This document shows positions 29,971 to 45,534 of a DNA stretch of 64,000 nt, in pieces; the first letter of the stretch is position 1; each line of letters starts with the position of its first letter. The stretch is from an uncultured Clostridia bacterium. GTDB taxonomy: Bacteria > Bacillota > Clostridia > Christensenellales > CALVMC01. Location of the stretch: the NCBI GenBank assembly GCA_944342015.1, contig CALVMC010000003.1, positions 88,708-152,707 of the forward strand, read 5' to 3'. Under the pieces are notes generated by a model that did no database searches, had not been told where the DNA came from, and saw only the letters and a program-made list of their open reading frames with translations. The position numbers and the translations under genes were made by a program.

Positions 29971-30486
29971 TTATATTTTAAACTTACCGGTACTTCCGAA
30001 TCCGCCGTTTCTTATACCGGAAGCGCTGTCGGACTCCGTAATTCCGAAAGGAATAAAAACTCCCTGTACAAAAGCTTCAGAGCAATTTATATTTAGAATT
30101 TTATCCGATTCGTTTGTGATTTTTATTATAATGTGTCCTTCGTTATCGCTGTTAAAGTAATCGGAATCGATAATGCCGACAGTGTTATCTAACTTCAATT
30201 TAAATTTATTGCCTAACCCGCTTTTAGGAAAACAAGCAAGAAACCAACCTTCTTGAATAAAAGCTCTTACTCCGGTAAAAATTTTTATACTTTCGCAAGG
30301 ATTCAAAGTAAATTCGTATGGAGCAAAAAAATCGTACCCGCAAGAACCTTTTGTGGCACGAACAGGAAGTATTATATTTTTATAAAACTCCTTTATTTTT
30401 TCCACGTCAAAAGAATTGTCGTATTCTGATAAATCTTTTACGAATATATTTTCCGAAACCTTTAAAAACTCAGCTATTCTTCTCAA
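29971..30486 (-). CDS. dut: Trimeric dUTPase
   Basis: RATKGSCGYDF, KSGLG, GIIDSDY, QGVF, RNGGFGSTG. Confidence 0.9.
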   Translation of the reverse strand: MRRIAEFLKVSENIFVKDLSEYDNSFDVEKIKEFYKNIILPVRATKGSCGYDFFAPYEFTLNPCESIKIFTGVRAFIQEGWFLACFPKSGLGNKFKLKLDNTVGIIDSDYFNSDNEGHIIIKITNESDKILNINCSEAFVQGVFIPFGITESDSASGIRNGGFGSTGKFKI

Positions 30487-31690
30487 AGCCTGCCTCCTTG
30501 AAGTTAAGTTTATTAAAAATATCGAGATAATCTTTTTTGGAAAAGATTACGGGCGACGGATATAAAGGATTGGATTCTTGGAAAGCGTGAGCTGCCATTT
30601 GTTTAAACTCGCTTTCGTTCAGTTTGAACTTATCTTCTATATCGAGCTTGAAGTTCAGTTCTTCAATATACTGAATAAATTTTTCGGCTTTGATATCCGG
30701 CAAGGCTGATTTTTCGGCAAGGGAAATGTAATCGGCAATTTCTGAAAGTTTCTGATAAGCCTTAGCGCCGTATTTTCTGAGAACCAAGGGAAGAGTTGCA
30801 GCGCAGGCAACACCGTGCGGAACTGAGGCAAAGCCTCCTACCGAATGGGCGGCAGCATGAACCGGTCCTACATAAGCCCGTGTAAAAGCCAGACCTGCAT
30901 AGAAAGAAGCGTAAAGCATGTTTTTATAATTATCATCGGTAGCCTCCCCGTTATAAACAGATAAAAGATTTTCAGAAATCAATTTAATGGATTTTAGGGC
31001 GCACTCGTCTGTAAAAGGGGTACCGCTTTTACCTATATAAGCTTCAACGGCATGAGTTAAAGCGTCCATTCCGGAAGAAGCTGTAATTCTTTGGGAAAGA
31101 TTAGAAATGAGTCTGAAATCCAAAAGCGCATAAGACGGAATAAGAGCGGTATCGATAATACTGTACTTGTCTTTGTTTTTTCTGTTGATTATCACGGAAG
31201 CCGCAGTGGCTTCGCTGCCTGTCCCTGCGGTTGTGGGAACGGCGATAAATAAAGGAAGTTTTTTTCTGACTTTCAGAATGCCTCTGAGATTTTTAATATC
31301 CTTACCCGTAGCTGCAACTGCCATAATGGCTTTTGCGCAGTCTATAACGGAACCGCCGCCTATGGCGATAACCGACTTGCAATTTTTCTCCTTAAAAAAT
31401 TTTGCTCCTTTTTCGACAAGGACGGTATCGGGGTCGGAAGTGGTTTCGCAAAAAGTCTCGAAAGGGATTTTTTTATCGTGCAGCTGAGAAATAAGTTCGT
31501 TAAAAAAAGGTTGTTGGCTGACGGTTTTTCCGGAAACGATTAAAACCGGGAAAGCATTCTTTTCTTTTAATATCTCGGTAGCGTCCTGAAAATTGTTTAA
31601 AATCTGAGGCTTCGGCCATTTAATACATTTTGCTAAAATTTTTAAAAAAAACTGATATGTTCTGCAATAAGCTTTAAAAAAACAATTCAT
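30470..31690 (-). CDS. Iron-containing alcohol dehydrogenase
   Basis: GGGSVIDCAK, PTTAGTGSE, DALTHAVE, HAAAH, HG. Confidence 0.92.
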   Translation of the reverse strand: MNCFFKAYCRTYQFFLKILAKCIKWPKPQILNNFQDATEILKEKNAFPVLIVSGKTVSQQPFFNELISQLHDKKIPFETFCETTSDPDTVLVEKGAKFFKEKNCKSVIAIGGGSVIDCAKAIMAVAATGKDIKNLRGILKVRKKLPLFIAVPTTAGTGSEATAASVIINRKNKDKYSIIDTALIPSYALLDFRLISNLSQRITASSGMDALTHAVEAYIGKSGTPFTDECALKSIKLISENLLSVYNGEATDDNYKNMLYASFYAGLAFTRAYVGPVHAAAHSVGGFASVPHGVACAATLPLVLRKYGAKAYQKLSEIADYISLAEKSALPDIKAEKFIQYIEELNFKLDIEDKFKLNESEFKQMAAHAFQESNPLYPSPVIFSKKDYLDIFNKLNFKEAGFEKNS

Positions 31691-31708: not shown

Positions 31709-32938
31709 TTAATTTAATTTATTTAATAAAACGGTAAAAGTCACTGTATCCTCTACGCACGATACTGAAATTTTACCTTTATGTTCTTTGACGATACTTT
31801 CTGCAATTGAAAGCCCCAGGCCGTTACCGCCCATTTCTCTTGACCTCGAACGGTCGACACGGTAAAAACGCTGAAAGATATTTTTTTGTTGTTCCTCTGA
31901 AAGAGGAGTTGCTTTATTGGAAACTTTAAGCTCCGCCTTTTCCTTTGTAGATGAAAGTTTAAGAGTAACGGTACTTTGAGCATACGAGTATTTTAAAGCG
32001 TTGTCAAGAAGAATGACGCAAAGTTGTTTTAATTTTGCACTGCTTCCTGAAACGAAAACATTTTTTTCGATATCGCATTGAAGGGTTTTGTCTTTTTCGT
32101 AATACACGGGTTCGAAAAGCAAAGCTTCGTTTTCGACGCAGTCGCTGAAATTGGTTTTGGTAAGTTCGGATTCTATATTTTCATTGTTATCGGAGCGGGC
32201 AAGAAATAACATATTATTAACAAGTTCGGTAAGTCTTTTGAGTTCGCTTTTTGTATTTTTAATCCAAATCATCTGACTTTCGATTGTTTCGGATTTGTTT
32301 GCTTCGAGAATTTCGGTATTAGCCATAATGACGGTAAGAGGGGTTTTGAGTTCGTGATTGACATCTGCAACAAGTTGTTTTTGTTGAGCCCAGGATTTTT
32401 CGACCGGTTTCAAAGCAAGATTGGACAAGAAGAAACTGATAATAAAAAGCACAACGATACTTAAAATACAAATAATGATACAAGTGTAAATAAGGCTGCT
32501 TAAAGTCTGTTTTTCGGCTTGCCTGTCAAGAAGTACCATAAAAGTGCTTCCTGACGAGCGTTCGATAAGAAAACGAACTTTATCGGAAGAAGAGATTCCC
32601 CTTTCTTCTCCGCTGAGATAACATTCGATTAAAGTATTTTGAAGTTCTTCGTTCTGAATTATGAACTCGTCGCTGAAAATAACGATGGCTTCGTTTTGTT
32701 CGGGAATAATTTTAGCGACGGCTATATCTTTCGGCTGCATAGAATAATTTTCTTTATCGGAAATAAAACTTTCAGCGTACTCGGTAAAGGGCTTTACTGC
32801 CTGATACATACGGGTAATGCTCGAACTTTCCAGATTTTTACTCATAATATTAACAATTACCCCCATAGAAATGCAGATAATTATAAAGATGAGAACCATA
32901 TTTATAGCTATAATCTGAAAGCGCAGTTTTCTCAGCAT
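31709..32938 (-). CDS. Sensor histidine kinase, CiaH-like
   Basis: Two TM helices, LKPVEKSWAQQKQLVADVNHELKTPL H-box, LLDNALKY, FYRVD..RSREMGGNGLGLSIA. Confidence 0.92.
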   Translation of the reverse strand: MLRKLRFQIIAINMVLIFIIICISMGVIVNIMSKNLESSSITRMYQAVKPFTEYAESFISDKENYSMQPKDIAVAKIIPEQNEAIVIFSDEFIIQNEELQNTLIECYLSGEERGISSSDKVRFLIERSSGSTFMVLLDRQAEKQTLSSLIYTCIIICILSIVVLFIISFFLSNLALKPVEKSWAQQKQLVADVNHELKTPLTVIMANTEILEANKSETIESQMIWIKNTKSELKRLTELVNNMLFLARSDNNENIESELTKTNFSDCVENEALLFEPVYYEKDKTLQCDIEKNVFVSGSSAKLKQLCVILLDNALKYSYAQSTVTLKLSSTKEKAELKVSNKATPLSEEQQKNIFQRFYRVDRSRSREMGGNGLGLSIAESIVKEHKGKISVSCVEDTVTFTVLLNKLN

Positions 32939-32940
32939 AA

Positions 32941-33609
32941 CTAAGCCTCTAAAAAATACCCTAATTTTCTTTTAACGCCTATATTGACTTTTGAGCCTAA
33001 ATAGAAGAGTTTTTTTCTGAGAAAGGAAATATAGGCTTCTATGTTGTTGTCGGTAGCTTCGGAATCGAGTCCCCATACTTTTGAAATAATGGTTTCCTTT
33101 TCTATAACCTGTTTAGGATTTGACATTAAGATGCGCATTATTTCGAATTCTTTAAAGCCGAGTCCGACCGTCTTTTCGCCGCAGGAAAGACTGTAATTTT
33201 TTAAATCGAGAATTAGATCGGAAAAAGAAAGAGTATCCATAACAACCGTACCCTGTCTTCTTGTAAGCGCCCTTATTCGTGCAATTAATTCTTCGGTCTG
33301 AAAAGGCTTTGTAAGGTAATCGTCTGCGCCTATATTAAGCCCGTGAATTTTATCCGCAACATCGCTTTTTGCGGTAAGCATTAAAATAGGGGTATTTTTT
33401 CCTTCTTTTCTTATTCTTTTTGCCACTTCGAAGCCGTCAAGTTTGGGAAGCATAATATCGAGAACAATACAGTCATACTCGTCGCTCAAAGCATAATAAA
33501 GACCTGTTTCACCGTCGTTTGCTATATCGTAAAGATATTTCGATTGTTTAAGTAAATGCCCTATTGCCTCGCCGAGCATAACTTCGTCTTCAATTATCAG
33601 TACCTTCAT
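32941..33609 (-). CDS. OmpR-family response regulator, CiaR-like
   Basis: IEDE, LDIMLP, LTAK, GADDYLTKPF; wHTH KEF...VWGLDSEATDNNIEAYISFLRKKL resembles pneumococcal CiaR as I recall it. Confidence 0.9.
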   Translation of the reverse strand: MKVLIIEDEVMLGEAIGHLLKQSKYLYDIANDGETGLYYALSDEYDCIVLDIMLPKLDGFEVAKRIRKEGKNTPILMLTAKSDVADKIHGLNIGADDYLTKPFQTEELIARIRALTRRQGTVVMDTLSFSDLILDLKNYSLSCGEKTVGLGFKEFEIMRILMSNPKQVIEKETIISKVWGLDSEATDNNIEAYISFLRKKLFYLGSKVNIGVKRKLGYFLEA

Positions 33610-33662
33610 TATTTATATCGGATATTAAATCCTATCCTCCGATCGAATTATTTATCATATAT

Positions 33663-33695
33663 AAGATAAAACATTAATCTTAAATTTAGTTTAAA
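33663..33695 (-). promoter_or_regulatory. CiaR-type box and -10 element for the regulator-kinase operon (autoregulation)
   Basis: Minus strand TTTAAA-ctaaa-TTTAAG-N10-TATCTT. Confidence 0.6.
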
Positions 33696-33794
33696 TATTT
33701 ATATTTATATTATATTTTATTTAAAAGATAATTTCAATAAGTTTTTTGTTTTTTAGTAATAACTGAAAATAACCTGAAAAAACTTTTTTTTATT

Positions 33795-33827
33795 TTTAAG
33801 TTTATTTTAAGTTATTGAATTTACAAT
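33795..33827 (+). promoter_or_regulatory. CiaR-type direct-repeat box and -10 element
   Basis: TTTAAG(33795-33800)-tttat-TTTAAG(33806-33811)-N10-TACAAT(33822-33827). Confidence 0.75.
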
Positions 33828-33833
33828 ATAATC

Positions 33834-33918
33834 AAAGATGAAAATCTTTAATAATAACCCCCCCAAAGTTATTATACTCCTTGTAGAAACGGCCTTTTTA
33901 AAAGGCCTTTTCTATTTC
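33834..33918 (+). ncRNA. Candidate csRNA-like small RNA
   Basis: AAAGAT-GAAA-ATCTTT hairpin; ATAATAAC-CCCCCCAAA-GTTATTAT hairpin; unpaired ACTCCTT; terminator-like TAGAAAcGGCCTTT/AAAGGCCtTTTCTA; no plausible ORF. Confidence 0.65.
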
Positions 33919-34098
33919 ATGGAATTTCATCGGTAATTGCTTTTAATCATTAATATTTACTGTACTTTAAAGTTTAATTCCCGGATTATCTTACTGTTTA
34001 AAGTAATGCATTTTATTATTAATCTGAAAATTTAATTTATTAAAAAATTATGAAAAGTATTTATATCACAATATGTAATCAATTAAATATTTTAAAAC

Positions 34099-34127
34099 AA
34101 AAACGGAACCATTAAGGTTCCGTTTTT
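34099..34127 (-). terminator. Intrinsic terminator of lipoprotein A
   Basis: AAAAACGGAACC-ATTAA-GGTTCCGTTTTT. Confidence 0.8.
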
Positions 34128-34144
34128 TTACCGATATAATTTAA

Positions 34145-36415
34145 TTACTCGATAATAGTAATGCCGTCTACTCCGTATATCTGAATATTGTCGCCTGTTA
34201 AAGTGAGTACGGCGATTCCGCCTGCGGAAGTAATAGTTCCTTTTTCATTGCATTTCCAAGTTATAATTTTAACTTCTGTTATTGCACCTTTATCGTTCTT
34301 TTCGGTTATGAGATAATCCATAATTTTAACTTTCTCGCCTGTTGAAAGAGTGAATACTCCGCCAAGTCTTATTTCGGGAACATCTGAGTAAGCAGTTGCA
34401 TACTCTCCGAATTCACCTTCGAAACCGACCGGCACGAGTTTTTCAGTATACTGAACATTACCGAAAGTTATATTTTCAATCGATATTGCCATTTTCTGAC
34501 AACCTGCAAAGAGTATAGAAAATATCTTATCGAAGGAATCCTTGGTTGGATCGGAAGCGCCGAACAAGGTATACAAGGCGTCTTTGAAATTCTTATTTAT
34601 TTCGGTATAATCTATTACTCCGTCGTTATCGGTATCGATAAAATTAATATTTCCCCAAACGGTAGTAATGGTTTTAAGAGTATTGAACAGTATATCTTTA
34701 TAATCGGCCTGTTTAGCGTTCTTCTTTTCGTAAGAACGGAAGGCGGCTTCGATTGCATAATCGGTAAGATCGTAAATGTTTATCTCGGCTTTTGTTTGAA
34801 TTTCTCCGTCGGTTGTATAGAATTCGATTATTGCCTCTTTGTTTTCAAGATCTATATCCTTTGCGTTGAAATAAAGGTAAGAGTCAATATTACCTTCCGA
34901 ATCTTTAAGAAGGAATTCGATAAGACCTTTACCGTCTACTCCGCCGTTTTTAAGGTGAGTCATAACGGCGTTTACTATACCTTCCCATAAAACCGCGCAT
35001 TTTTCTTTATACTCAGCGTCGGTCATGCCGTCGGTTTTTACAACTTTATTCAAGGGATCGAAAGCGTATTCCAATCCTGCCATAAGAGCGCCCATGATAT
35101 CTATATCGACTTTTAATTCGTAGGTATAAATCTCTGCCGTATTTATTTCGCTCGAACTGTTGTATCTTTGAACATTGCCGTTCATTGTTATAGACAGCAT
35201 GTTGTTCGAATCTGCCATAGTATCTGAATAAGTTTCTATGGCGCTTGTAATTTTTGACTGTATTTCGGTATCGACGCTTGCGTTGTAAGAAGCCGTTATA
35301 TTGAATTTATCGAAAAGAAGTTTAGCGGAACCTTTTGTGAAATGGAATTTAACTAATTCCTTACAGCTTAAAATTTCATCGTTCACATCGTCTTTTTCCA
35401 TAGGAACGCCTAAAACTATATCGAAAGTTTCCGCACTGTTAATAAATTCCACAGCAAGATTTTGAAGGTCGCTGTCAGAACCGATTTTGGCAGAAAGAAC
35501 GACGTCTACTCCTTTACATGACGGAAGATTATTGTTTGAAAGTGCGTCCCACTGACCTTTCCCGACCTGAATATAAATACCGGCTTCCTGGAAGTATTCT
35601 TTTAAAGAAGAATAAACATTTTTCCCGTCCACGGTAGGCGAAACGAATCCTAAAAGCGCGCCGCCCATGGTTTTAACCATATTCATAACGCTTTCGAGAT
35701 CTATTGTAATTTTAACATCTTTCGAGCCGTCGGAATTAGTTGTTATGTAAGGATTGGCGGTACTGTTCGGGTCTGCTCCGACCGGGTCTTCACAAAAGCC
35801 TGCAATGGCCGCAATTATAACATCGATATCGAGAGAACTGGTATCGTTTGTGCTTTCGGTTGCAGATGCGTCGTTTAATACTAAATTTGCGATAGCGGAA
35901 ACGGACGCAAAATCGATCCTACCCGTTATATAAGGCTGGTCGCCGAAAATTGTACCGGTAAGACTCTGGTCATTTTTAAGAATAAGGAATAAATCGTTCT
36001 CGTTTTCGCCGTCGTTATAATAGGCGCCGAATACAAGTTTGTTATCGGCAAGAGAATTATTTACGATTTCGAACATTAAAGAAGTATTCTGTCCGCCTGT
36101 TATATCGATATTGCCTTTAAGAACAATAGTATAATTTTCCTTTGTTTCGGTTGCGTCCGTAGGATTATTTGTCCAGTTTGCCGAAAAATCGATATTTATT
36201 ACCTTTTCTTTAATTTGAGAAAACCCGTTGGTAAATTCCGTAACGGCAGAACCTAAAATCAAGTTCAATGCTTCCGTTTTTGCGTTTAACCAGCTCGTAG
36301 TTGTTTGATCGTCATCATCGGGATCTTCCGGCGGGTTACAAGCAATTAACGAAAAAGCAAGAACACATACAAGCACTACTGAAATCAGTATTTTCCAAAA
36401 TTTAAACTTTTTCAT
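34145..36415 (-). CDS. Large acidic lipoprotein of unknown function (paralog A)
   Basis: Start reassigned to ATG 36415 behind a GGGAGG RBS; signal MKKFKFWKILISVVLVCVLAFSLIAC (lipobox); promoter TTGCAA-N17-TAAAAT upstream. Confidence 0.85.
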   Translation of the reverse strand: MKKFKFWKILISVVLVCVLAFSLIACNPPEDPDDDDQTTTSWLNAKTEALNLILGSAVTEFTNGFSQIKEKVINIDFSANWTNNPTDATETKENYTIVLKGNIDITGGQNTSLMFEIVNNSLADNKLVFGAYYNDGENENDLFLILKNDQSLTGTIFGDQPYITGRIDFASVSAIANLVLNDASATESTNDTSSLDIDVIIAAIAGFCEDPVGADPNSTANPYITTNSDGSKDVKITIDLESVMNMVKTMGGALLGFVSPTVDGKNVYSSLKEYFQEAGIYIQVGKGQWDALSNNNLPSCKGVDVVLSAKIGSDSDLQNLAVEFINSAETFDIVLGVPMEKDDVNDEILSCKELVKFHFTKGSAKLLFDKFNITASYNASVDTEIQSKITSAIETYSDTMADSNNMLSITMNGNVQRYNSSSEINTAEIYTYELKVDIDIMGALMAGLEYAFDPLNKVVKTDGMTDAEYKEKCAVLWEGIVNAVMTHLKNGGVDGKGLIEFLLKDSEGNIDSYLYFNAKDIDLENKEAIIEFYTTDGEIQTKAEINIYDLTDYAIEAAFRSYEKKNAKQADYKDILFNTLKTITTVWGNINFIDTDNDGVIDYTEINKNFKDALYTLFGASDPTKDSFDKIFSILFAGCQKMAISIENITFGNVQYTEKLVPVGFEGEFGEYATAYSDVPEIRLGGVFTLSTGEKVKIMDYLITEKNDKGAITEVKIITWKCNEKGTITSAGGIAVLTLTGDNIQIYGVDGITIIE

Positions 36416-36774
36416 AATTCCTCCCATGTCAAGGTTGTTATTGATATCTAAAATTTTATAAAAAATTTATTTATTAAATTTTCTACTAACTAATTTTAGC
36501 ACAACTGAATGTTCATTGCAATACTTTTTATTTTTTTTATTAATATATATATGGAAAATATTGTAAATAGAATATCAAATACACTAAGTAATTTATTGCT
36601 AGTTTTAAGACTTTTAAATTTATTTTTAAAATAATTGAAATTTTTTTATAATTAAATAAGATTTTAATTTTAATTTAAAAGTTTTAACATTAAAAATTAA
36701 AAAGGTTAAAATCGGCACCTTTTTATTAAAATTTTAATTTGAATATGCCGAAATTATTTTTTAACATAACATAA

Positions 36775-36802
36775 AAAAACGGAACCTTTCGGTTCCGTTT
36801 TT
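36775..36802 (-). terminator. Intrinsic terminator of lipoprotein B
   Basis: AAAAACGGAACC-TTTC-GGTTCCGTTTTT; same stem as at 34099. Confidence 0.8.
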
Positions 36803-36821
36803 GCTTAGTGCTAAATGTCGG

Positions 36822-39005
36822 TTAAGCGATAGGCTTGCCGTTAACATCTTTGATTGTGATATCAGTACCTGTGATATCGAATACAACGCATCCTCCGTTA
36901 AGTACTACATTACCTTCTGCATCGCAGGACCAAGCGATAACTTTGGCTTTTGTAATGTTGCTTGAAGCGTCTCTTTGAGTTACGAGATAATCCAATACTT
37001 TAAAGGTTTTGCTGTCAACTTCAACTTTTGCACCTACTTGAATTTCAGATACTGCAAAAGAATCTGTTGAAAGTTCTACTCCGCCCGTAAATCCGCCAAG
37101 GTCGGAAGGAGTGGCCATGAACTGAACATTTCCGAATTTGAATTCTTCGATAGAAACAGACATTTTATCTTTACCGCCGAAGATTGTATCGATAACTACA
37201 TCGATAGAAGCCTTTGTTTCTGCTGTCGGATTGAATATAGCATATAATCCGTCAACGAAAGAACTGTAAACTTCGGTATATTCTACAACGCCGTCATCGT
37301 TGCTGTCAACAAAGTTAACATTGCCCCAAAGACCTGTTACTGCCTTTAATACATTGAATATAACTACTTTATAATCCAAAGTTGTAGTAGCTTTGTCTTC
37401 GCTTGCAAAAGCAGCGGTTGCAGCATATTCGATTACATCGTAAAGGTTCAAAGTCGATTTAACTTTTTGTCCTTCTGCGGTTGTTGTGTATAAGGTGATT
37501 ATCGCTTCTTTATTTGCGGTATTAATATCGGCTGCGTCAAAACAGAAATAAGTGTTGGTAGTAGTTCCGTTACCCATCCAGTATTCTATTTTAGCTTTTC
37601 CGTTGCCGTTATCGTAAAGATAATCGATAACTTCGTCAACTATTTCCATAGTGAGTTCATAGCAAGCTGCATCGTATTGAGCGTCGGTCATGTTGCCTTT
37701 AACGACTTTGTTAGCCATTCCGTATTCGAGACCTGCCCAAACAGCACCTATAACATCGGCATCGATATTGAATTTGTATTCGTAAGTATCGGTAGCGTCA
37801 GCATAATTGCCGTCATATCTCTTAACTTCACCCGAGAAGCTGAATGCAAGCGCATTGCTAGAAGATATATCGCCGAACTCTGTGATTTTGCCGTCGATAG
37901 TACTTGCAATATTAGCGTCTTTCGAAGTTCCTACATTAAGGGTGTCAACAGAAAGTTTTGCGCTGCCAGCGGGGAAATTAAAGTTAAATAATTCTTTGTA
38001 AGTATTTCCGGAAGGTACTCCGAGAACGAAATCGAAAGCAGTGCTGTTTTTGAATTCAACTGCTAAATTCTGTAAATTGCTGCTTGCGTCGATTTTAGCC
38101 GAAAGAACAACATCTACTCCTGTGCATGCAGGAAGATTGTTGTGGGAAAGAGGCTGCCATTCGCCGCCGACTTTGGTGTAAAGTCCTACGGCTTCAAAAT
38201 ATTCGCTTAAAGACTGGTAATCGTTGGTTTTACCGTCGCTGCTCGGTGAAATGAATCCTATGAGCGCACCGCCCATGGTTTTAACCATATTCATAACGCT
38301 TTCAAGGTCGATTGTAATGCTTACGGTTTTAGAACCGTCAGAGTTTGCAGTAATATAAGGATTAACGCCTTCGGTAGGTTCGCCTGCTCCTACGGGATCT
38401 TCACAGAAACCTGCAACAGCCGCAATGATAACATCGAGAGAGCTCATATCGATTGTGCTTTCGGTAGCCGAATTATCGGTGAAAAGGTTAACGATAGAAG
38501 CAAAAGACGGGAAAGATATTCTTCCTGTAAGATAATCTTCACTTCCGAAAATGTTTCCGGTAAGCTTGGGATCGTTTTTGAGTTTAAGGAAGATATCGGA
38601 ACCGTCTTTGTAATAAGCACCGAATACGAGTTTGTTTTCGGTAAGGGAATTGTTTACAACTTCAACCATTAAAGCGGTATCTTCTCCACCCGTGATATCG
38701 ATATTACCTTTAACGCTGAAAGTAAAGTTCTCTGTTGCCGCACTTGCGCCGTTCGGAGTATTTGTCCATGAAGCAGCAAGGTCAAGGCTTATGACCTTGG
38801 TTGTAATGTCGCCGAATCCGCTGACCTTAGTTGCAGCAGAACCTAAAATCAAGTTCAATGCTTCCGTTTTTGCGTTTAACCAGCTCGTAGTTTTTTGATC
38901 GTCATCACCGGGTTCTTCCGGCTGGTTACAAGCAATTAACGAAAAAGCAAGAACACATACTAACAATACTGAAATCAGTATTTTCCAAAATTTAAACTTT
39001 TTCAT
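36822..39005 (-). CDS. Large acidic lipoprotein of unknown function (paralog B)
   Basis: Start reassigned to ATG 39005 behind GGGAGG; lipobox LIAC; collinear similarity to paralog A over the full length. Confidence 0.85.
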   Translation of the reverse strand: MKKFKFWKILISVLLVCVLAFSLIACNQPEEPGDDDQKTTSWLNAKTEALNLILGSAATKVSGFGDITTKVISLDLAASWTNTPNGASAATENFTFSVKGNIDITGGEDTALMVEVVNNSLTENKLVFGAYYKDGSDIFLKLKNDPKLTGNIFGSEDYLTGRISFPSFASIVNLFTDNSATESTIDMSSLDVIIAAVAGFCEDPVGAGEPTEGVNPYITANSDGSKTVSITIDLESVMNMVKTMGGALIGFISPSSDGKTNDYQSLSEYFEAVGLYTKVGGEWQPLSHNNLPACTGVDVVLSAKIDASSNLQNLAVEFKNSTAFDFVLGVPSGNTYKELFNFNFPAGSAKLSVDTLNVGTSKDANIASTIDGKITEFGDISSSNALAFSFSGEVKRYDGNYADATDTYEYKFNIDADVIGAVWAGLEYGMANKVVKGNMTDAQYDAACYELTMEIVDEVIDYLYDNGNGKAKIEYWMGNGTTTNTYFCFDAADINTANKEAIITLYTTTAEGQKVKSTLNLYDVIEYAATAAFASEDKATTTLDYKVVIFNVLKAVTGLWGNVNFVDSNDDGVVEYTEVYSSFVDGLYAIFNPTAETKASIDVVIDTIFGGKDKMSVSIEEFKFGNVQFMATPSDLGGFTGGVELSTDSFAVSEIQVGAKVEVDSKTFKVLDYLVTQRDASSNITKAKVIAWSCDAEGNVVLNGGCVVFDITGTDITIKDVNGKPIA

Positions 39006-39037
39006 AATTCCTCCCATTTGTAATTTAATACGAATAA

Positions 39038-39066
39038 ATTTTAACATATATGTTTTTTACTTGCAA
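39038..39066 (-). promoter_or_regulatory. Sigma-A promoter of lipoprotein B
   Basis: TTGCAA-N17-TAAAAT with TGn; identical hexamers precede paralog A. Confidence 0.65.
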
Positions 39067-39092: not shown

Positions 39093-39109
39093 TTTAAGGA
39101 TTTTTTAAG
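39093..39109 (+). promoter_or_regulatory. CiaR-type box upstream of lipoprotein B, opposite orientation to the gene
   Basis: TTTAAG-gattt-TTTAAG exact match. Confidence 0.5.
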
Positions 39110-40918: not shown

Positions 40919-41125
40919 AAAACACCTCTTTTAAATTTATGCTTTTAAAAACCGTGATATGAGAAAATCGTAAAGGTAAAAAGTTGTGTTTAGTTTTTTT
41001 AATAAATACTTAAATTGTAAAAAGCATATCTTAAAATGTTTATTCTTTTGCGTTTTAAGAAAATTTTTAGGAATCATTATTAAAATACTTGAATTGTTTA
41101 TTACATTGTGTTAATATATTTATAA

Positions 41126-41303
41126 AGAACCGACGGGACGGAAAATCCTACCCGAAGGAATCTTTAAACTTTTAAGCGACTTAAAGTTTTGCTTAATTGA
41201 AATTAAACATACCGAGTCTAAGGACGGTCCGAGGACAAAGAGAGTTTAAATCAAAGAATAATTTTGCTTTGTTTTATTCCTTTGTCTTTGACAAAGGTTT
41301 TTT
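41126..41303 (+). promoter_or_regulatory. Structured leader/attenuator upstream of the hydrogenase maturation operon
   Basis: Several hairpins ending in terminator CCTTTGTC-TTT-GACAAAGG-T6 just before the RBS; GACAAAG at 41234-41240 could form an antiterminator. Confidence 0.6.
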
Positions 41304-41319
41304 AATATAAAGGTGGAAT

Positions 41320-41565
41320 ATGGAAAACCGCATAGCAGTAATAGGAATAATAGTGGAAAATCAGGATATGACAACTAAACTCAACGAAATTCTTCACGAA
41401 TACGGAAGGTATATAATCGGAAGAATGGGCGTACCATTCCGTGAAAAAGGAATAAACATAATCAGCATAGCGATAAACGCACCGCACGAGATAATCAGCG
41501 CACTGTCGGGAAAAATCGGAAGACTTGACGGAGTCAGCGCAACGACAGCCTATTCAAAAGTATGA
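41320..41565 (+). CDS. TM1266-family iron-only hydrogenase system putative regulator
   Basis: RIAVIGIIVEN...LNEILHEY...IIGRMGVP...ISALSGKIGRL; precedes hydE. Confidence 0.9.
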   Translation: MENRIAVIGIIVENQDMTTKLNEILHEYGRYIIGRMGVPFREKGINIISIAINAPHEIISALSGKIGRLDGVSATTAYSKV

Positions 41566-42614
41566 AAAAGGATTTTATAGAAAGGATTATAGAAAATACC
41601 CAAAAGGGTATTGTTCCGAAAGCCGAAGATTTAAAATTAATTTTCGGCTGCGACGATAAGGCTTTAAGTCCTTTATATGAAAGGGCGAGAGAAACTGCAT
41701 TTTCTGTATATTCCGACAATGTTTTTGTAAGGGGGCTTATTGAAATAACTTCCTTTTGCAAAAACGACTGTTTATACTGCGGACTCAGACGCTCGAACAA
41801 GGAAGCGCAAAGATACCGCATTAAAGAAGAAGATATATTTGAAATCTGTAAAATCGGTTACGAAAAAGGGTTCAGAACCTTTGTTCTGCAAGGCGGCGAA
41901 GACGGTTATTTCGGCGACGAAATACTCGTTCCCCTGATAGAAAAAATAAAATCCGCTTTTAAAAATGTTGCGGTGACGCTTTCCTTGGGGGAAAGAACAA
42001 AGGAAAGTTATAAAAATCTATTTAATGCGGGAGCCGACAGATATCTTTTAAGGCACGAAACGGCAGACAGTAAACATTATAAAAAACTGCACCCGAAAGA
42101 TATGAGTTACGAAAACAGAAAACGGTGCCTTTACGACTTAAAGGAAATAGGATATCAGACGGGCTGCGGACTTATGGTAGGCTCGCCCTATCAGACCGAA
42201 GAAAGTCTGTATAAAGACCTTGTTTTCATAAAAGAGTTCTATCCCGAAATGGTGGGAATAGGACCTTTTATTCCCCACAAAAAGACGCCCTTTAAGGACT
42301 TTGAAAAAGGTTCGGTTAAAAAAACCCTTATAATGCTTGCCCTTGTCAGAATATTGGTACCGAAAGCACTTCTTCCTGCGACAACCGCTTTAAAGACGGC
42401 GGACGGTAACGGGCTTTTAAAAGGAATTCTTTCGGGCGCAAATGTTATAATGCCTAATTTAACGCCCGACGAGTACAGAACAAAATATGAAATATACGAC
42501 GGAAAAACTACAAGCGATAAAAAATGCATCAAAGAATATCTTGAAAATATCGATAACGAACTTAATAAAATAGGACGGCGGCTTAATATGAGCCGTGGCG
42601 ATTATAAAAAATAA
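41562..42614 (+). CDS. hydE: [FeFe]-hydrogenase H-cluster radical SAM maturase HydE
   Basis: RGLIE...CKNDCLYCGLR, LQGGED, YLLRHET, GIGPFIPH, PATTAL, GANVIMPN. Confidence 0.93.
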   Translation: MKKDFIERIIENTQKGIVPKAEDLKLIFGCDDKALSPLYERARETAFSVYSDNVFVRGLIEITSFCKNDCLYCGLRRSNKEAQRYRIKEEDIFEICKIGYEKGFRTFVLQGGEDGYFGDEILVPLIEKIKSAFKNVAVTLSLGERTKESYKNLFNAGADRYLLRHETADSKHYKKLHPKDMSYENRKRCLYDLKEIGYQTGCGLMVGSPYQTEESLYKDLVFIKEFYPEMVGIGPFIPHKKTPFKDFEKGSVKKTLIMLALVRILVPKALLPATTALKTADGNGLLKGILSGANVIMPNLTPDEYRTKYEIYDGKTTSDKKCIKEYLENIDNELNKIGRRLNMSRGDYKK

Positions 42615-42659
42615 AATCCTGAAAGGGAAGATTATAAGCCTTGAAGGCGGGAGGGATAT

Positions 42660-44078
42660 ATGTATAATGTAAAATCAATGAAAGCGGAAGAGTTTATCGA
42701 CCATAACGAGATAGAAGAAACCCTTTCTTTTGCAGAAGCAAACAAGAACAATTTAAAACTTATCGACAGCCTTATTGAAAAAGCAAAAGAGAGAAAGGGA
42801 CTCAGTCACAGAGAAGCGTCCGTTCTTCTTGCCTGCGAAAACAAGGAAAAACTCGAAGAAATCTATGCTTTGGCAAGACAGATAAAAGAAGATTTTTACG
42901 GGAACAGAATTGTAATGTTTGCCCCCCTTTATCTTTCCAACTACTGTGTAAACGGCTGCGTATACTGTCCCTATCACGGACAGAACAAACATATACCGAG
43001 AAAGAAACTTACTCAGGAAGATATCGTAAAAGAAGTAACAGCCCTTCAAGATATGGGACATAAAAGACTTGCGATAGAATCGGGAGAAGACCCTGTACAT
43101 AATCCCATAGAATACATACTCGAAAGTATAAAGACAATATATTCGATAAAACATAAAAACGGCGCTATACGAAGGGTAAATGTAAATATTGCGGCAACCA
43201 CGGTGGAAAATTATAAAAAACTGAAAGACGCAGGAATAGGAACATATATACTTTTTCAGGAAACATATCACAAGGAAAGTTACGAAAAACTGCACCCGTG
43301 GGGACCTAAGCACGATTACTGCTATCATACCGAAGCTATGGACAGAGCGATGCAAGGCGGGATAGACGATGTGGGACTCGGGGTTCTTTTCGGACTGGAA
43401 CTTTACAAGTACGAATTTGCAGGACTTTTAATGCACGCAGAACATTTGGAAGCGGTATTCGGAGTAGGTCCGCACACGATAAGCGTGCCGAGAATAAAGA
43501 GAGCGGACGATATTAATCCTACCGATTTCGATAACGGAATAGATGACGAAACCTTCGCTAAAATCTGCGCTCTTATAAGAATAAGCGTTCCTTATACGGG
43601 TATGATAATTTCAACGAGAGAAAGCAAGGCGGTGCGGGAAAAGGTACTGAGCCTTGGAATATCGCAGATAAGCGGCGGTTCGAGAACAAGCGTTGGCGGA
43701 TACTATGAAGAGGAAGAGGAAGACGAAAGCTCGGAACAGTTCGATGTAAGCGACAAAAGAACCCTTGACGAAGTGGTCTGCTGGCTTATGGAACTTGGAT
43801 ATATTCCGAGTTTCTGCACGGCTTGTTACAGAGAAGGCAGAACGGGCGACAGATTTATGACATTGCTTAAAAACAAGCAGATACTTAACTGCTGCCATCC
43901 TAACGCTCTTATGACTCTTAAAGAATTTTTGTGCGACTACGCTTCGGAAAAGACGGTAAAAATCGGAAACGAACTTATAAAGCGGGAACTTGAAAAAATT
44001 CCAAACGAAACAGTAAAAGCAAAAGCCAAGGAAAATCTGGAAAAAATCGAGAAAGGTATCCGTGATTTCAGATTCTGA
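42660..44078 (+). CDS. hydG: [FeFe]-hydrogenase H-cluster radical SAM maturase HydG
   Basis: FAPLYLSNYCVNGCVYC, FQETYH, GPHTISVPR, C-terminal SFCTACYR...CHPNA. Confidence 0.96.
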   Translation: MYNVKSMKAEEFIDHNEIEETLSFAEANKNNLKLIDSLIEKAKERKGLSHREASVLLACENKEKLEEIYALARQIKEDFYGNRIVMFAPLYLSNYCVNGCVYCPYHGQNKHIPRKKLTQEDIVKEVTALQDMGHKRLAIESGEDPVHNPIEYILESIKTIYSIKHKNGAIRRVNVNIAATTVENYKKLKDAGIGTYILFQETYHKESYEKLHPWGPKHDYCYHTEAMDRAMQGGIDDVGLGVLFGLELYKYEFAGLLMHAEHLEAVFGVGPHTISVPRIKRADDINPTDFDNGIDDETFAKICALIRISVPYTGMIISTRESKAVREKVLSLGISQISGGSRTSVGGYYEEEEEDESSEQFDVSDKRTLDEVVCWLMELGYIPSFCTACYREGRTGDRFMTLLKNKQILNCCHPNALMTLKEFLCDYASEKTVKIGNELIKRELEKIPNETVKAKAKENLEKIEKGIRDFRF

Positions 44079-44331
44079 AATCGGTTTTAAGGTTTTTTTA
44101 AAAATATAAAAATATTTTAAATTTTTTATAATATTATAAGAAACCGTTTTAAAATTTTTTCGGAATTAAACATTTCGGTTTTATTTAAGCCGATAATCGC
44201 CGTAAAATTCAACAAAACGGAACGCCATATTCTCTACAAGCGAGTTTTATTTAATCCGAAAATAGCCGTAAAAATTTAAGTACCGAAAAATCGTACTTGC
44301 TTAATTAAATAAATTATAAGGTGGTAACAAT

Positions 44332-45534
44332 ATGAGTTTAAACGACACGCCGTTAGCGGAAAGAGTGCATATAGCCTTTTTCGGAATGAGAAATGCCGGA
44401 AAATCATCACTTGTAAACGCAGTTACAAGGCAGAATGTTTCTATTGTTTCTGAAAAAAAGGGAACGACGACAGACCCTGTTTACAAGAATATGGAACTTC
44501 TGCCGTTAGGTCCCGTTACGATTATAGATACGCCGGGCTTTGACGACGACGAAGAAACGCTCGGAAAACTCAGAGTGGAAAAAGCCGTTCATATTTTAAG
44601 AAAAACCGATATAGCCGTTCTCGTAAAAGACTCCTCTCTGCCCTTTTCCGAAACCGAAAAAACACTTGTTTCGGAATTTGAAAAATTAAATGTACCCTAC
44701 ATAATAGCACAGAACAAGTGCGACCTTATACAAAATATTAACAGCCAAAACGGTACCGTTTTTGTCAGCGCAAAAACCGGTAAAGGAATAACCGAATTAA
44801 AAGAAAAAATAGCAAGTTTAAACTTGTTGAAAACACAGTCTCGAAAACTGCTCGATGGCATAGCAAATAAAGGCGACACTTTAATTCTTGTAGTTCCGAT
44901 AGACAAAGCCGCTCCGAAAGGAAGACTTATTCTTCCCCAACAGCAGGTAATAAGGGAAGCTCTCGACTCAGGCTGCGTTGCGGTTATAACACGGGACGAA
45001 GAACTCGAACAGACTCTCAAAGCAATAAAAAATCCTTCCTTTGTAATATGCGACAGTCAGGTTTTTTCATATACCGCTTCCGTAGTACCCGAAAGCATAC
45101 CGCTTACTTCCTTTTCTATACTTATGGCACGATATAAAGGATTTTTAGATACGGCGCTGAAAGGGGTAACAAAAATTTCAAAGCTTACCGAAAAAAGCAA
45201 GGTTGTAATTTCCGAAGGCTGTACCCATCACCGTCAATGCGGCGATATAGGAACGGTTAAGATACCTGCGCTTATTGAAAAATTCACAAAGGTTCGCCCG
45301 AAGTACAAATTTACTTCGGGACAGGATTTTTCAGAAGAAATTATAAAAGACGCCGACCTTGTTATACACTGCGGCGGTTGTATGCTTAACGAAAGAGAAA
45401 TGCAGTTCAGACAGAATATCGCTTTAAACTGCGGCGTTTCTTTCACCAATTACGGAACGGCTATTTCCTATATGTCGGGAATACTCAAAAGAAGTATAAA
45501 GGATATACCTGAATATAGAAATTTCGATATATAG
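44332..45534 (+). CDS. hydF: [FeFe]-hydrogenase maturation GTPase HydF
   Basis: GMRNAGKSS, GTTTDPV, DTPG, NKCD, PKGRLILPQ, EGCTHH, HCGGC, TNYG. Confidence 0.96.
   Translation: MSLNDTPLAERVHIAFFGMRNAGKSSLVNAVTRQNVSIVSEKKGTTTDPVYKNMELLPLGPVTIIDTPGFDDDEETLGKLRVEKAVHILRKTDIAVLVKDSSLPFSETEKTLVSEFEKLNVPYIIAQNKCDLIQNINSQNGTVFVSAKTGKGITELKEKIASLNLLKTQSRKLLDGIANKGDTLILVVPIDKAAPKGRLILPQQQVIREALDSGCVAVITRDEELEQTLKAIKNPSFVICDSQVFSYTASVVPESIPLTSFSILMARYKGFLDTALKGVTKISKLTEKSKVVISEGCTHHRQCGDIGTVKIPALIEKFTKVRPKYKFTSGQDFSEEIIKDADLVIHCGGCMLNEREMQFRQNIALNCGVSFTNYGTAISYMSGILKRSIKDIPEYRNFDI

Follow-up and report, generated by a model that had tools for sequence, protein, structure and literature searches.

A candidate TTTAAG-box small RNA gene beside an OmpR-family two-component system in an uncultured gut Clostridia bacterium

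We analyzed a 64,000-nt stretch of DNA (the window; positions 88,708 to 152,707 of contig CALVMC010000003.1, assembly GCA_944342015.1) from an uncultured Clostridia bacterium, in which a first-pass annotation, made from the letters alone, had proposed a small RNA gene next to a two-component system. We conclude, with a probability of roughly 0.65, that positions 33834–33918 (+ strand) form a stand-alone, regulator-linked gene for a trans-acting small regulatory RNA (sRNA) of about 85 nt. The case is built in silico on the anatomy of the unit, on its conservation, and on the recurrence in related genomes of a regulator, a protease and orphan RNA units, all driven by the same promoter box. The genome under study (G000) comprises 1.44 Mb in 18 contigs, with 36% G+C and 86% completeness; the genome collection contains a single other species of the genus (G001, 95% complete), to which we refer as the congener.

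The unit begins with an exact direct repeat, TTTAAG-TTTAT-TTTAAG (33795–33811, +; halves at 33795–33800 and 33806–33811), which is separated by a 10-nt spacer, TTATTGAATT, from a -10 hexamer, TACAAT (33822–33827, +), that matches TATAAT at five of six positions. The promoter has no -35 element, and we propose that the repeat (hereafter the box) replaces it as the putative binding site of the adjoining OmpR-family response regulator. Both the layout given in the first-pass annotation, TTTAAG-N5-TTTAAG exactly 10 bp before TACAAT on the + strand, and its divergence from the regulator gene proved correct, with the regulator open reading frame (ORF) lying on the - strand at 32941–33609. The unit occupies a 535-bp intergenic gap (33610–34144) between two - strand genes. 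The gap is bordered by the start of the regulator gene and by the end of a gene for a 760-aa lipoprotein, which has a terminator of its own near 34100–34130. The + strand carries no gene for more than 7 kb 3' of the unit, which is therefore an orphan unit and not a leader.

Taking the RNA to start at 33834, an assumption that follows the convention of Marx 2010 (7 nt past the -10), the predicted product is 85 nt long and ends in a U-rich tail (33918). Its minimum free energy (MFE) is -23.2 kcal/mol (z -6.2), and none of 200 dinucleotide shuffles folded equally well. The predicted fold consists of a 5' hairpin of 6 bp with a GAAA loop (hairpin 1, 33834–33849), a second hairpin of 8 bp (hairpin 2, 33851–33875) with the loop CCCCCCAAA at 33859–33867, an unpaired anti-Shine-Dalgarno linker, ACUCCUU (33876–33882), and an intrinsic terminator stem (33883–33915) with a GGCCUUU...AAAGGCC core and a GUAGAAA/UUUCUAU extension, followed by U-rich sequence. 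Hairpin 2 contains a run of seven C, the first of them base-paired, and we propose its loop as a candidate seed for G-rich ribosome-binding sites; loop and linker are exposed in both the MFE and the centroid structures. A consensus scan of 33500–34250 returned a single terminator-like site (33891–33907, +, then TTTTCTATTT; shuffle mean 0.1). Fold and scan together bear out the two hairpins, the unpaired ACUCCUU and the terminator-like stem that the annotation had described, and they support the view that the unit is built like an orphan sRNA gene. A search of Rfam, which contains csRNA models (for the cia-dependent small RNAs of streptococci), gave no family at gathering score across the window except two tRNAs. 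The 12 matches around the site (E up to 10) were all at noise level and none was of csRNA type, so that this suggested check turned up neither a csRNA nor any other family.

Comparison with the congener outlines the unit closely. Identity is 17/17 in the box, 7/10 in the spacer, 6/6 in the -10, 49/49 in the RNA body and 34/36 in the terminator; it is about 90% in the regulator and lipoprotein coding regions, and 49.5%, with gaps, in the intergenic DNA directly 3' of the terminator. A third variant, found on contigs from two public runs, differs at eight positions across 33747–33952. None of these changes touches the box or 33834–33898; they alter the spacer, the -10 (which reads TAAAAT), the two bases beside the start, the terminator loop and position 33908. 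The T>G change at 33908, common to the congener and the third variant, turns a C/U mismatch in the terminator into a C–G pair. Such a footprint is what one would expect if proteins contact two elements of the promoter and selection acts on the transcribed product at the nucleotide level, and it supports strong purifying selection on the RNA body. An intergenic alignment with relatives had been among the checks suggested in the first-pass annotation, and it shows box and RNA body kept in both available variants. Searches farther afield gave less: a DNA search recovered the unit in one of 60 relatives (the congener), a search of the genome collection with the regulator fell from 97% identity directly to at most 62%, and a metagenome search with the regulator reached at most 65% identity and found no RNA of the G000 type. 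The genome and metagenome collections searched thus held no relatives with a regulator identity of 70%–95%.

The annotation had also stated that the unit has no ORF, which does not hold: an ATG at 33838 opens a frame of 32 codons that ends at 33936, though it is not conserved. The unit might accordingly encode a small hydrophobic peptide, MKIFNNNPPKVIILLVETAF..., and its conservation might reflect that peptide, an explanation we regard as very unlikely. The peptide is partly hydrophobic, and its first 20 codons are identical in the congener. Against this, the ATG lacks a Shine-Dalgarno sequence and would have a leader of just about 4 nt from the predicted start, and the frame crosses the terminator, so that a terminated transcript would contain no in-frame stop. 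The loop change at 33899 moreover shortens the frame to 20 codons in both the congener and the third variant. Finally, the 60 nt in question carry no synonymous changes, compared with about 10% differences in the neighboring genes, which argues for constraint at the nucleotide level.

We now turn to the regulator. The response regulator (222 aa; 32941–33609, -) belongs to the OmpR/PhoB family (Pfam Response_reg and Trans_reg_C), and its gene is followed by one for a sensor histidine kinase (409 aa; 31709–32938, -; HisKA and HATPase_c) that overlaps the regulator stop codon; the kinase has two hydrophobic segments on either side of about 120 aa. The regulator scores below all NCBIfam equivalog cut-offs, with sub-threshold matches to RppA, CopR-type, TctD, MtrA, PhoB and PmrA models, and its closest solved structure is DrrD of T. 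maritima (1kgs). It is one of two Trans_reg_C genes that we found in the assembly (86% complete); the other OmpR-type regulator is distant, with a PhoP/WalR-like helix, RTLDIHIASLREKI. In a comparison confined to the recognition helix, that of the regulator (NIEAYISFLRKKL) is identical at 7 of 13 positions, and that usual among its relatives (NNVEVYISFLRKKL) at 9 of 13, to the CiaR helix VVEVYVSKVRKKL, described as nearly invariant in streptococci (PMC3091779).

The regulator operon has a box of its own. A one-mismatch copy, TTTAAACTAAATTTAAG (33679–33695, -), lies 10 nt before a TATCTT hexamer ahead of the operon and is identical to the congener at 17/17 positions within surroundings of 83%–87% identity; we propose that it is an autoregulatory site. 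We assembled 80 loci with regulator homologues (97% to 43% identity), whose named records are uncultured Eubacteriales, Oscillospiraceae and Ruminococcus metagenome-assembled genomes (MAGs) and some Candidatus Saccharibacteria bins. At 34 of the 80, the 900 nt upstream contained a box with one mismatch or none. Among the 18 closest loci, 11 had such a box on the regulator's own strand, 54–164 nt before its start, a count that rises to 15 once a second mismatch is tolerated in boxes that have a -10-like hexamer at N10. In a sample of 301 genomes of the order, 6 of the 27 examined exact-box sites other than our own preceded response-regulator genes (five of them Pfam-confirmed). The recurrence of the box before regulator homologues indicates that regulator family and box travel together.

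The box also recurs before proteases. A second exact box with an N10 hexamer (TATATT) is found in G000 at C1:83938, followed by a good ribosome-binding site and a gene (C1:83938–85408) for a 471-aa lipoprotein with Trypsin_2 and PDZ domains, and hence an HtrA/DegP-type protease. The box-N10-TATATT-protease arrangement is identical in the congener, and an exact box precedes the protease in genome G062 too, where the regulator is 57% and the protease 40% identical. We scanned 16 genomes with regulator homologues (G000, G001 and G061–G074) for the exact pattern TTTAAG-N5-TTTAAG-N10-TANNNT and obtained 30 matches; the reversed-pattern control gave none in 10 of these genomes, the remaining control being counted only at up to one mismatch. 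By Pfam, the exact box stands before HtrA-like proteases in 7 of the 16 (G000, G001, G062, G068, G070, G071 and G074). Other genes behind exact boxes in this set were VTC-domain genes (Pfam-confirmed at locus L140; at L122, L146 and L149 by N-terminal resemblance only) and secreted proteins or lipoproteins, along with a few doubtful sites. The 301-genome order sample contained the exact pattern 34 times in 29 genomes, compared with 8 occurrences of the reversed-pattern control. In S. pneumoniae, CiaR is reported to control htrA, five small RNAs and ciaRH itself through the TTTAAG repeat (PMC8317062, PMC8186281).

Two observations on these genes may be recorded here. The protease gene of G000 is the first of a tandem pair of HtrA-like lipoprotein genes (C1:83938–87744; loci L101 and L162; 471 and 702 aa). 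Both proteins have N-terminal repeats with a motif of about 30 residues (...SAYEIAVENGF.GT..EWL.SLKG...), and the 702-aa protein has collagen-like GXY repeats (Pfam Collagen) ahead of its trypsin domain, an unusual architecture for the HtrA type. Box-driven VTC-domain (polyphosphate-polymerase-like) genes, divergent from the regulator or elsewhere, were seen at L022, L030, L032, L034, L140, L146, L149, L177 and L191.

Orphan RNA-like units form the third class. An exact box followed by an orphan, terminator-ended, C/U-rich RNA-like unit was present in 7–8 of the 16 genomes. The unit of G062 (L118; 86 nt, z -9.3) is divergent from the regulator, as in G000, with the loop CAUACCCCCUAC and a UUCCCAC linker, and that of G063 (L116; 104 nt, z -6.3) lies away from the regulator and exposes an unpaired UUCUCCUCA. 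Those of G067 (L135) and G069 (L136) are 92–94 nt long, with a 5' hairpin, about 45 unpaired C/U-rich bases and a terminator (z -4.0 and -4.7, respectively); their terminators differ by compensating stem changes. In G073 (L141; 160 nt, z -2.7) a 5' hairpin is followed by CACAAAUCCCCU, and the unit of G074 (L139; z -3.6) is doubtful, with a poor -10. The order sample added one more, in G310 (L170; z -4.6), while a further RNA candidate, L174, was rejected (z +0.2). No shuffle out of 200 folded as well as the native sequence for six of the seven units outside the congener pair; the exception is L141, with 3 of 200. No sequence relation links the units, except that G000, G073 and the G067/G069 pair begin in a similar way (ATAATCAA and a short hairpin). 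All lack an ORF, and C/U-rich loops or linkers recur among them. A scan for the box with similar RNAs, another suggestion of the earlier annotation, therefore yields orphan units behind exact boxes in other genomes and a single copy in G000. The small-RNA arm has apparently been invented repeatedly behind one promoter module.

Given this recurrence, we consider it extremely improbable that the unit is a chance assembly of AT-rich motifs, conserved by local coincidence between two closely related genomes. TTTAAG-like words are indeed common in G000, and a single congener genome is available. But the edges of the footprint are sharp, a third variant repeats the pattern, the structure stands out from its shuffles at z -6.2, and other genera show this promoter design ahead of regulators, proteases and orphan units alike, with reversed-pattern controls near zero.

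The VTC-domain genes raise another possibility, namely that the unit is the relic or decoy of a lost divergent VTC-domain gene, a functionless transcript whose site at most titrates the regulator or insulates the operon. VTC-domain genes stand under divergent boxes at many homologous loci, and none was found in G000 (86% complete) or in the congener (95% complete). In addition, the first bases past the -10 (ATAATCAA) resemble the VTC-driving promoters of L032 and L034, and also L141. A relic, however, would be expected to decay as the post-terminator DNA has (49.5% identity), yet the RNA body is identical at 49/49 positions, and the conserved block stops at the terminator rather than at the box. 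Furthermore, G062 has a VTC gene elsewhere and still carries an RNA-like unit at the divergent position, and the orphan unit of G063 is away from the regulator. We judge a relic quite unlikely, and return to the reading of the unit as a small regulatory RNA gene.

How does the unit compare with known systems? The csRNA search rule allows each half of the box a single mismatch provided that both G are retained; it then requires a -10 with no more than two mismatches 10 nt on, an intergenic position, and a terminator within 250 nt (PMC3091779). The unit has the box, the -10 spacing, the intergenic position and the terminator of this rule of Marx et al. 2010. Streptococcal csRNAs, as described, have an identical promoter design, TTTAAG-N5-TTTAAG with 10 bp to the -10 and no -35 (PMC3091779, PMC8186281). 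They are likewise intergenic, terminator-ended orphan genes of about 50–200 nt with stem-loops and an unpaired anti-Shine-Dalgarno stretch. About 40 sequence types are reported, laid out as a 5' hairpin, an exposed C/U-rich stretch and a terminator, and virtually all keep one short conserved stretch (PMC3091779). The CiaRH regulon likewise places an htrA-type protease and its own operon under the box (PMC8317062), as we find here in silico, and the regulator shares an operon with a membrane histidine kinase as CiaR does, a trait generic to many systems. The unit differs from csRNAs in its host, an uncultured clostridial gut bacterium, in having no Rfam match, in its three hairpins and the C7 run in one of their loops, in adjoining the two-component system, and in being found once per genome, compared with the 2–6 copies described for csRNAs.

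A second parallel is found in Listeria monocytogenes, where small RNAs (LhrC1–5) are likewise under envelope-stress two-component control (LisRK), and where C-rich UCCC motifs of LhrC bind Shine-Dalgarno sites (PMC4132741). Similar to LhrC, the unit has a C-rich loop and a CU-rich linker, and its best predicted targets encode exported proteins. It differs in that LhrC is multicopy, in that the sequences are not similar, and in that the targets here are predicted; PMC4132741 defines no LisR consensus box. The same repeat, with 11-bp periodicity, is moreover described for PmrA of A. baumannii, HP1043/HsrA of H. pylori and BAS0540 of B. anthracis (PMC10927774, PMC5253667, PMC4938410). For BAS0540 the box likewise stands before its own gene, and the cited parts of these three reports describe no small RNA arm. 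As the repeat is also used by these regulators, the box alone cannot assign our regulator to CiaR.

Other sRNAs follow comparable designs. RsaE/RoxS of Staphylococcus and Bacillus pair C-rich motifs with G-rich ribosome-binding sites and are regulated by ResD/SrrA and Rex. In enterobacteria, the sigma-E-controlled, Hfq-dependent MicA and RybB are envelope-stress sRNAs that stop exported-protein synthesis while proteases such as DegP are induced. The sequences of both groups differ from that of the G000 RNA. Judged by analogy of design, the unit can be called csRNA-like and its regulon CiaRH-like, and the likeness to LisRK/LhrC is equally close. The annotation's phrase, a CiaRH-csRNA-like module, can thus be kept for promoter, layout and regulon design; it does not extend to kinship, as there is no Rfam or csRNA sequence relation and the box is not specific to CiaR. 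A literature search, judged by titles and the starts of abstracts, found no such module in Clostridia.

To look for targets, we scored the RNA against 1420 ribosome-binding regions, comprising those of 1419 crudely called genes and of one gene at a contig edge. The best net cofold energy of the 1420 (-24.9 kcal/mol) belonged to the latter, which encodes an LRR_5 surface protein (contig C9, start at 1430, - strand). Its leader, AAAUAACUUUAAGGGGGGUUAUUAUG, is a near-antisense of hairpin 2, and the site is identical in the congener. Second came the 702-aa HtrA-like gene (C1:85636) directly 3' of the box-driven protease gene (-18.8 kcal/mol), whose Shine-Dalgarno sequence, AAGGGGGGGU, is one of four G000 runs of at least seven G; the third-ranked site reached -16.0, and the mean was -4.2. 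The two best predicted sites lie exactly on the ribosome-binding sites of exported proteins. The 12-nt complement of the linker, AAGGAGTATAAT, is also present in G000 ribosome-binding regions. The complement of the G062 RNA loop had 14 matches, compared with 8 in the control, and none was at a ribosome-binding site.

In the mechanism we propose, an envelope signal would act on the histidine kinase, and the phosphorylated OmpR-family regulator would bind TTTAAG boxes and recruit RNA polymerase. It would thereby activate its own operon (one-mismatch box), the HtrA-like protease gene (exact box) and the RNA, which would be one branch of a small regulon for cell-envelope stress. The C-rich loop and ACUCCUU would pair over the ribosome-binding sites of messages that encode secreted or surface proteins, lowering their translation. 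Alternatively, the RNA may be real and regulated but act without anti-Shine-Dalgarno pairing (as a protein-binding, sponge, or activating RNA), the predicted targets being due to chance. The target statistics are weak, as detailed below, and three stable hairpins leave only the 7 linker bases and the 9-nt loop unpaired, both of which favor such a mode. Yet C-rich loops or linkers recur in the orphan units of other genomes and are described as typical of Shine-Dalgarno-blocking sRNAs of low-G+C Gram-positives (PMC4132741), and chance targets would have to fall on the exported-protein ribosome-binding sites noted above. We hold this mode of action to be unlikely, and keep to an RNA that would pair with ribosome-binding sites.

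Several points weigh against our reading as a whole. Transcription of the unit is inferred, as are the signal sensed, the mRNAs targeted and the direction in which they would be controlled; that the regulator binds the box is taken from footprints only. Of four public runs whose contigs were compared with the stretch, the one metatranscriptome gave no match, which bears on expression in neither direction. The U-tract of the terminator is interrupted (UUUUCUAUUUC; GUUUCUAUUUC in the congener). The hairpins show no covariation, as there are only three near-identical variants and the body is invariant, and such invariance fits an RNA, a DNA or a peptide constraint alike. The unpaired parts contain no CAU or CAC, only a CAA in the loop; CAU is reported in 53 of 61 csRNAs (PMC3091779). 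With regard to targets, the duplex energy of the real seed was matched by 14 of 30 shuffled seeds, and its longest complement (12 nt in called genes, 13 nt in the contig-edge gene) falls within the shuffle range of 10–15 nt. The net-cofold control consists of six shuffles only, which lose hairpin 2 and reach minima of -15 to -23.3 compared with -24.9, and the G7 Shine-Dalgarno sequence of the second HtrA-like gene is G5 in the congener. The predicted targets are therefore leads, not findings, and are suggestive only.

The statistics of the box within this genome add a further point on the same side. We counted 8 boxes in the window at up to one mismatch, compared with 3.4 expected, and 1 of 100 shuffles reaches 8; there are three exact boxes in G000. 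Following the 59 boxes of G000 with at most one mismatch, TANNNT occurs 5 times at N10, 6 at N15, 4 at N7 and 4 at N12. A preference for the 10-nt spacing seemed perfect when N9–N11 were counted, and was discarded once N4–N16 were included. The box alone is therefore not significant in a genome of 36% G+C, and N10 is not enriched relative to N7, N12 or N15. With these within-genome statistics being weak, the weight of the argument rests on conservation and on recurrence in other genomes. None of 16 G000 sites with at most two mismatches was a convincing further copy of the RNA.

Because N10 is not enriched, we treat the one-mismatch sites at window positions 41054 and 44086 as possibly due to chance. 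The one at 41054 is accompanied by TAAAAT and stands before a GC-richer leader of about 230 nt (box and leader within 41054–41320) with no Rfam match at gathering score, which precedes + strand ORFs of 81, 350, 472 and 400 aa (41320–45534). The third exact box of G000, TTTAAGGATTTTTTAAG (39093–39109, +), has no TANNNT at N10. It lies upstream of the first gene of a paralogous lipoprotein pair, oriented against that gene, in a segment (39006 to about 39130) without differences from the congener, and is a possible further regulator site. The two lipoproteins (760 and 741 aa; in tandem at 34145–39047, -) likely have true starts at MKKFKFW... and gave no Pfam, NCBIfam or other family match. We also considered the box-driven lipoproteins of other genomes as their homologues, and rejected this: blastp matched just 1 of 14, over the first 45–107 residues, which is about the signal peptide and what comes after.

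Several features were noted around the regulator operon. A sigma-70-like promoter, TTGAAA-17-TATAAT (33709–33737, -), which agrees with the consensus at 11 of 12 positions, is located upstream of the regulator-side box; both hexamers are unchanged in the congener, and it is possibly a constitutive promoter of the operon. The regulator-side box would then fall just 3' of its start, which could mean dual promoters or negative autoregulation. The regulator gene has a GGAGG about 27 nt before its ATG (33610–33650, -), a distance that an intervening 5-bp hairpin (GGATA...TATCC) would narrow, and this arrangement is kept in the congener. A gene of the iron-containing alcohol dehydrogenase family (30470–31690, -) begins 18 nt past the end of the kinase gene and may be cotranscribed with the two-component system; its best NCBIfam match, below cut-off, is the ErcA regulatory ADH-like protein.

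Beyond the Clostridia, bins of Candidatus Saccharibacteria (TM7) from the ruminant gut contain regulator homologues of about 50% identity with the helix NYVEVY(I/M/V)SYLRKK(L/I/M) (loci including L054, L058, L060–L062, L066, L068–L070, L072 and L075). There, box-like repeats separate the regulator from a divergent VTC-domain gene. The finding points to a module common to gut Clostridia and Saccharibacteria, or else to binning errors.

Taken together, the observations permit a wider, doubtful reading, which we offer as speculation. An old TTTAAG-box/HtrA envelope-stress circuit may extend beyond Streptococcus, with related regulators and boxes also in the Saccharibacteria bins, and each lineage may have reinvented the RNA arm by putting a C/U-rich RNA of unrelated sequence under the shared promoter module. 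Within the genus of G000, the RNA would occupy the place of the box-driven VTC gene of relatives. Hairpin 2 resembles an inverted copy of the ribosome-binding hairpin of the best predicted target, as if the sRNA had been born from its target's leader.

No general principle is altered by these results. Uncultured Clostridia are dominant in the guts of animals and humans, yet their regulatory RNAs are almost unknown, partly since homology cannot find sRNAs. Here a streptococcal promoter rule (box, 10 bp, -10, terminator) picked out a conserved orphan RNA unit, a coherent small regulon, and similar units in several genera. If the unit is indeed transcribed, the design common to CiaRH/csRNA and LisRK/LhrC, namely a sensor, a protease and an RNA directed against ribosome-binding sites, would reach another class of Firmicutes. 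The rule would then offer a cheap in-silico handle on the sRNAs of metagenome-assembled genomes, and the units it finds, as independent RNA inventions that share one promoter module, would allow the origins of sRNAs to be studied.

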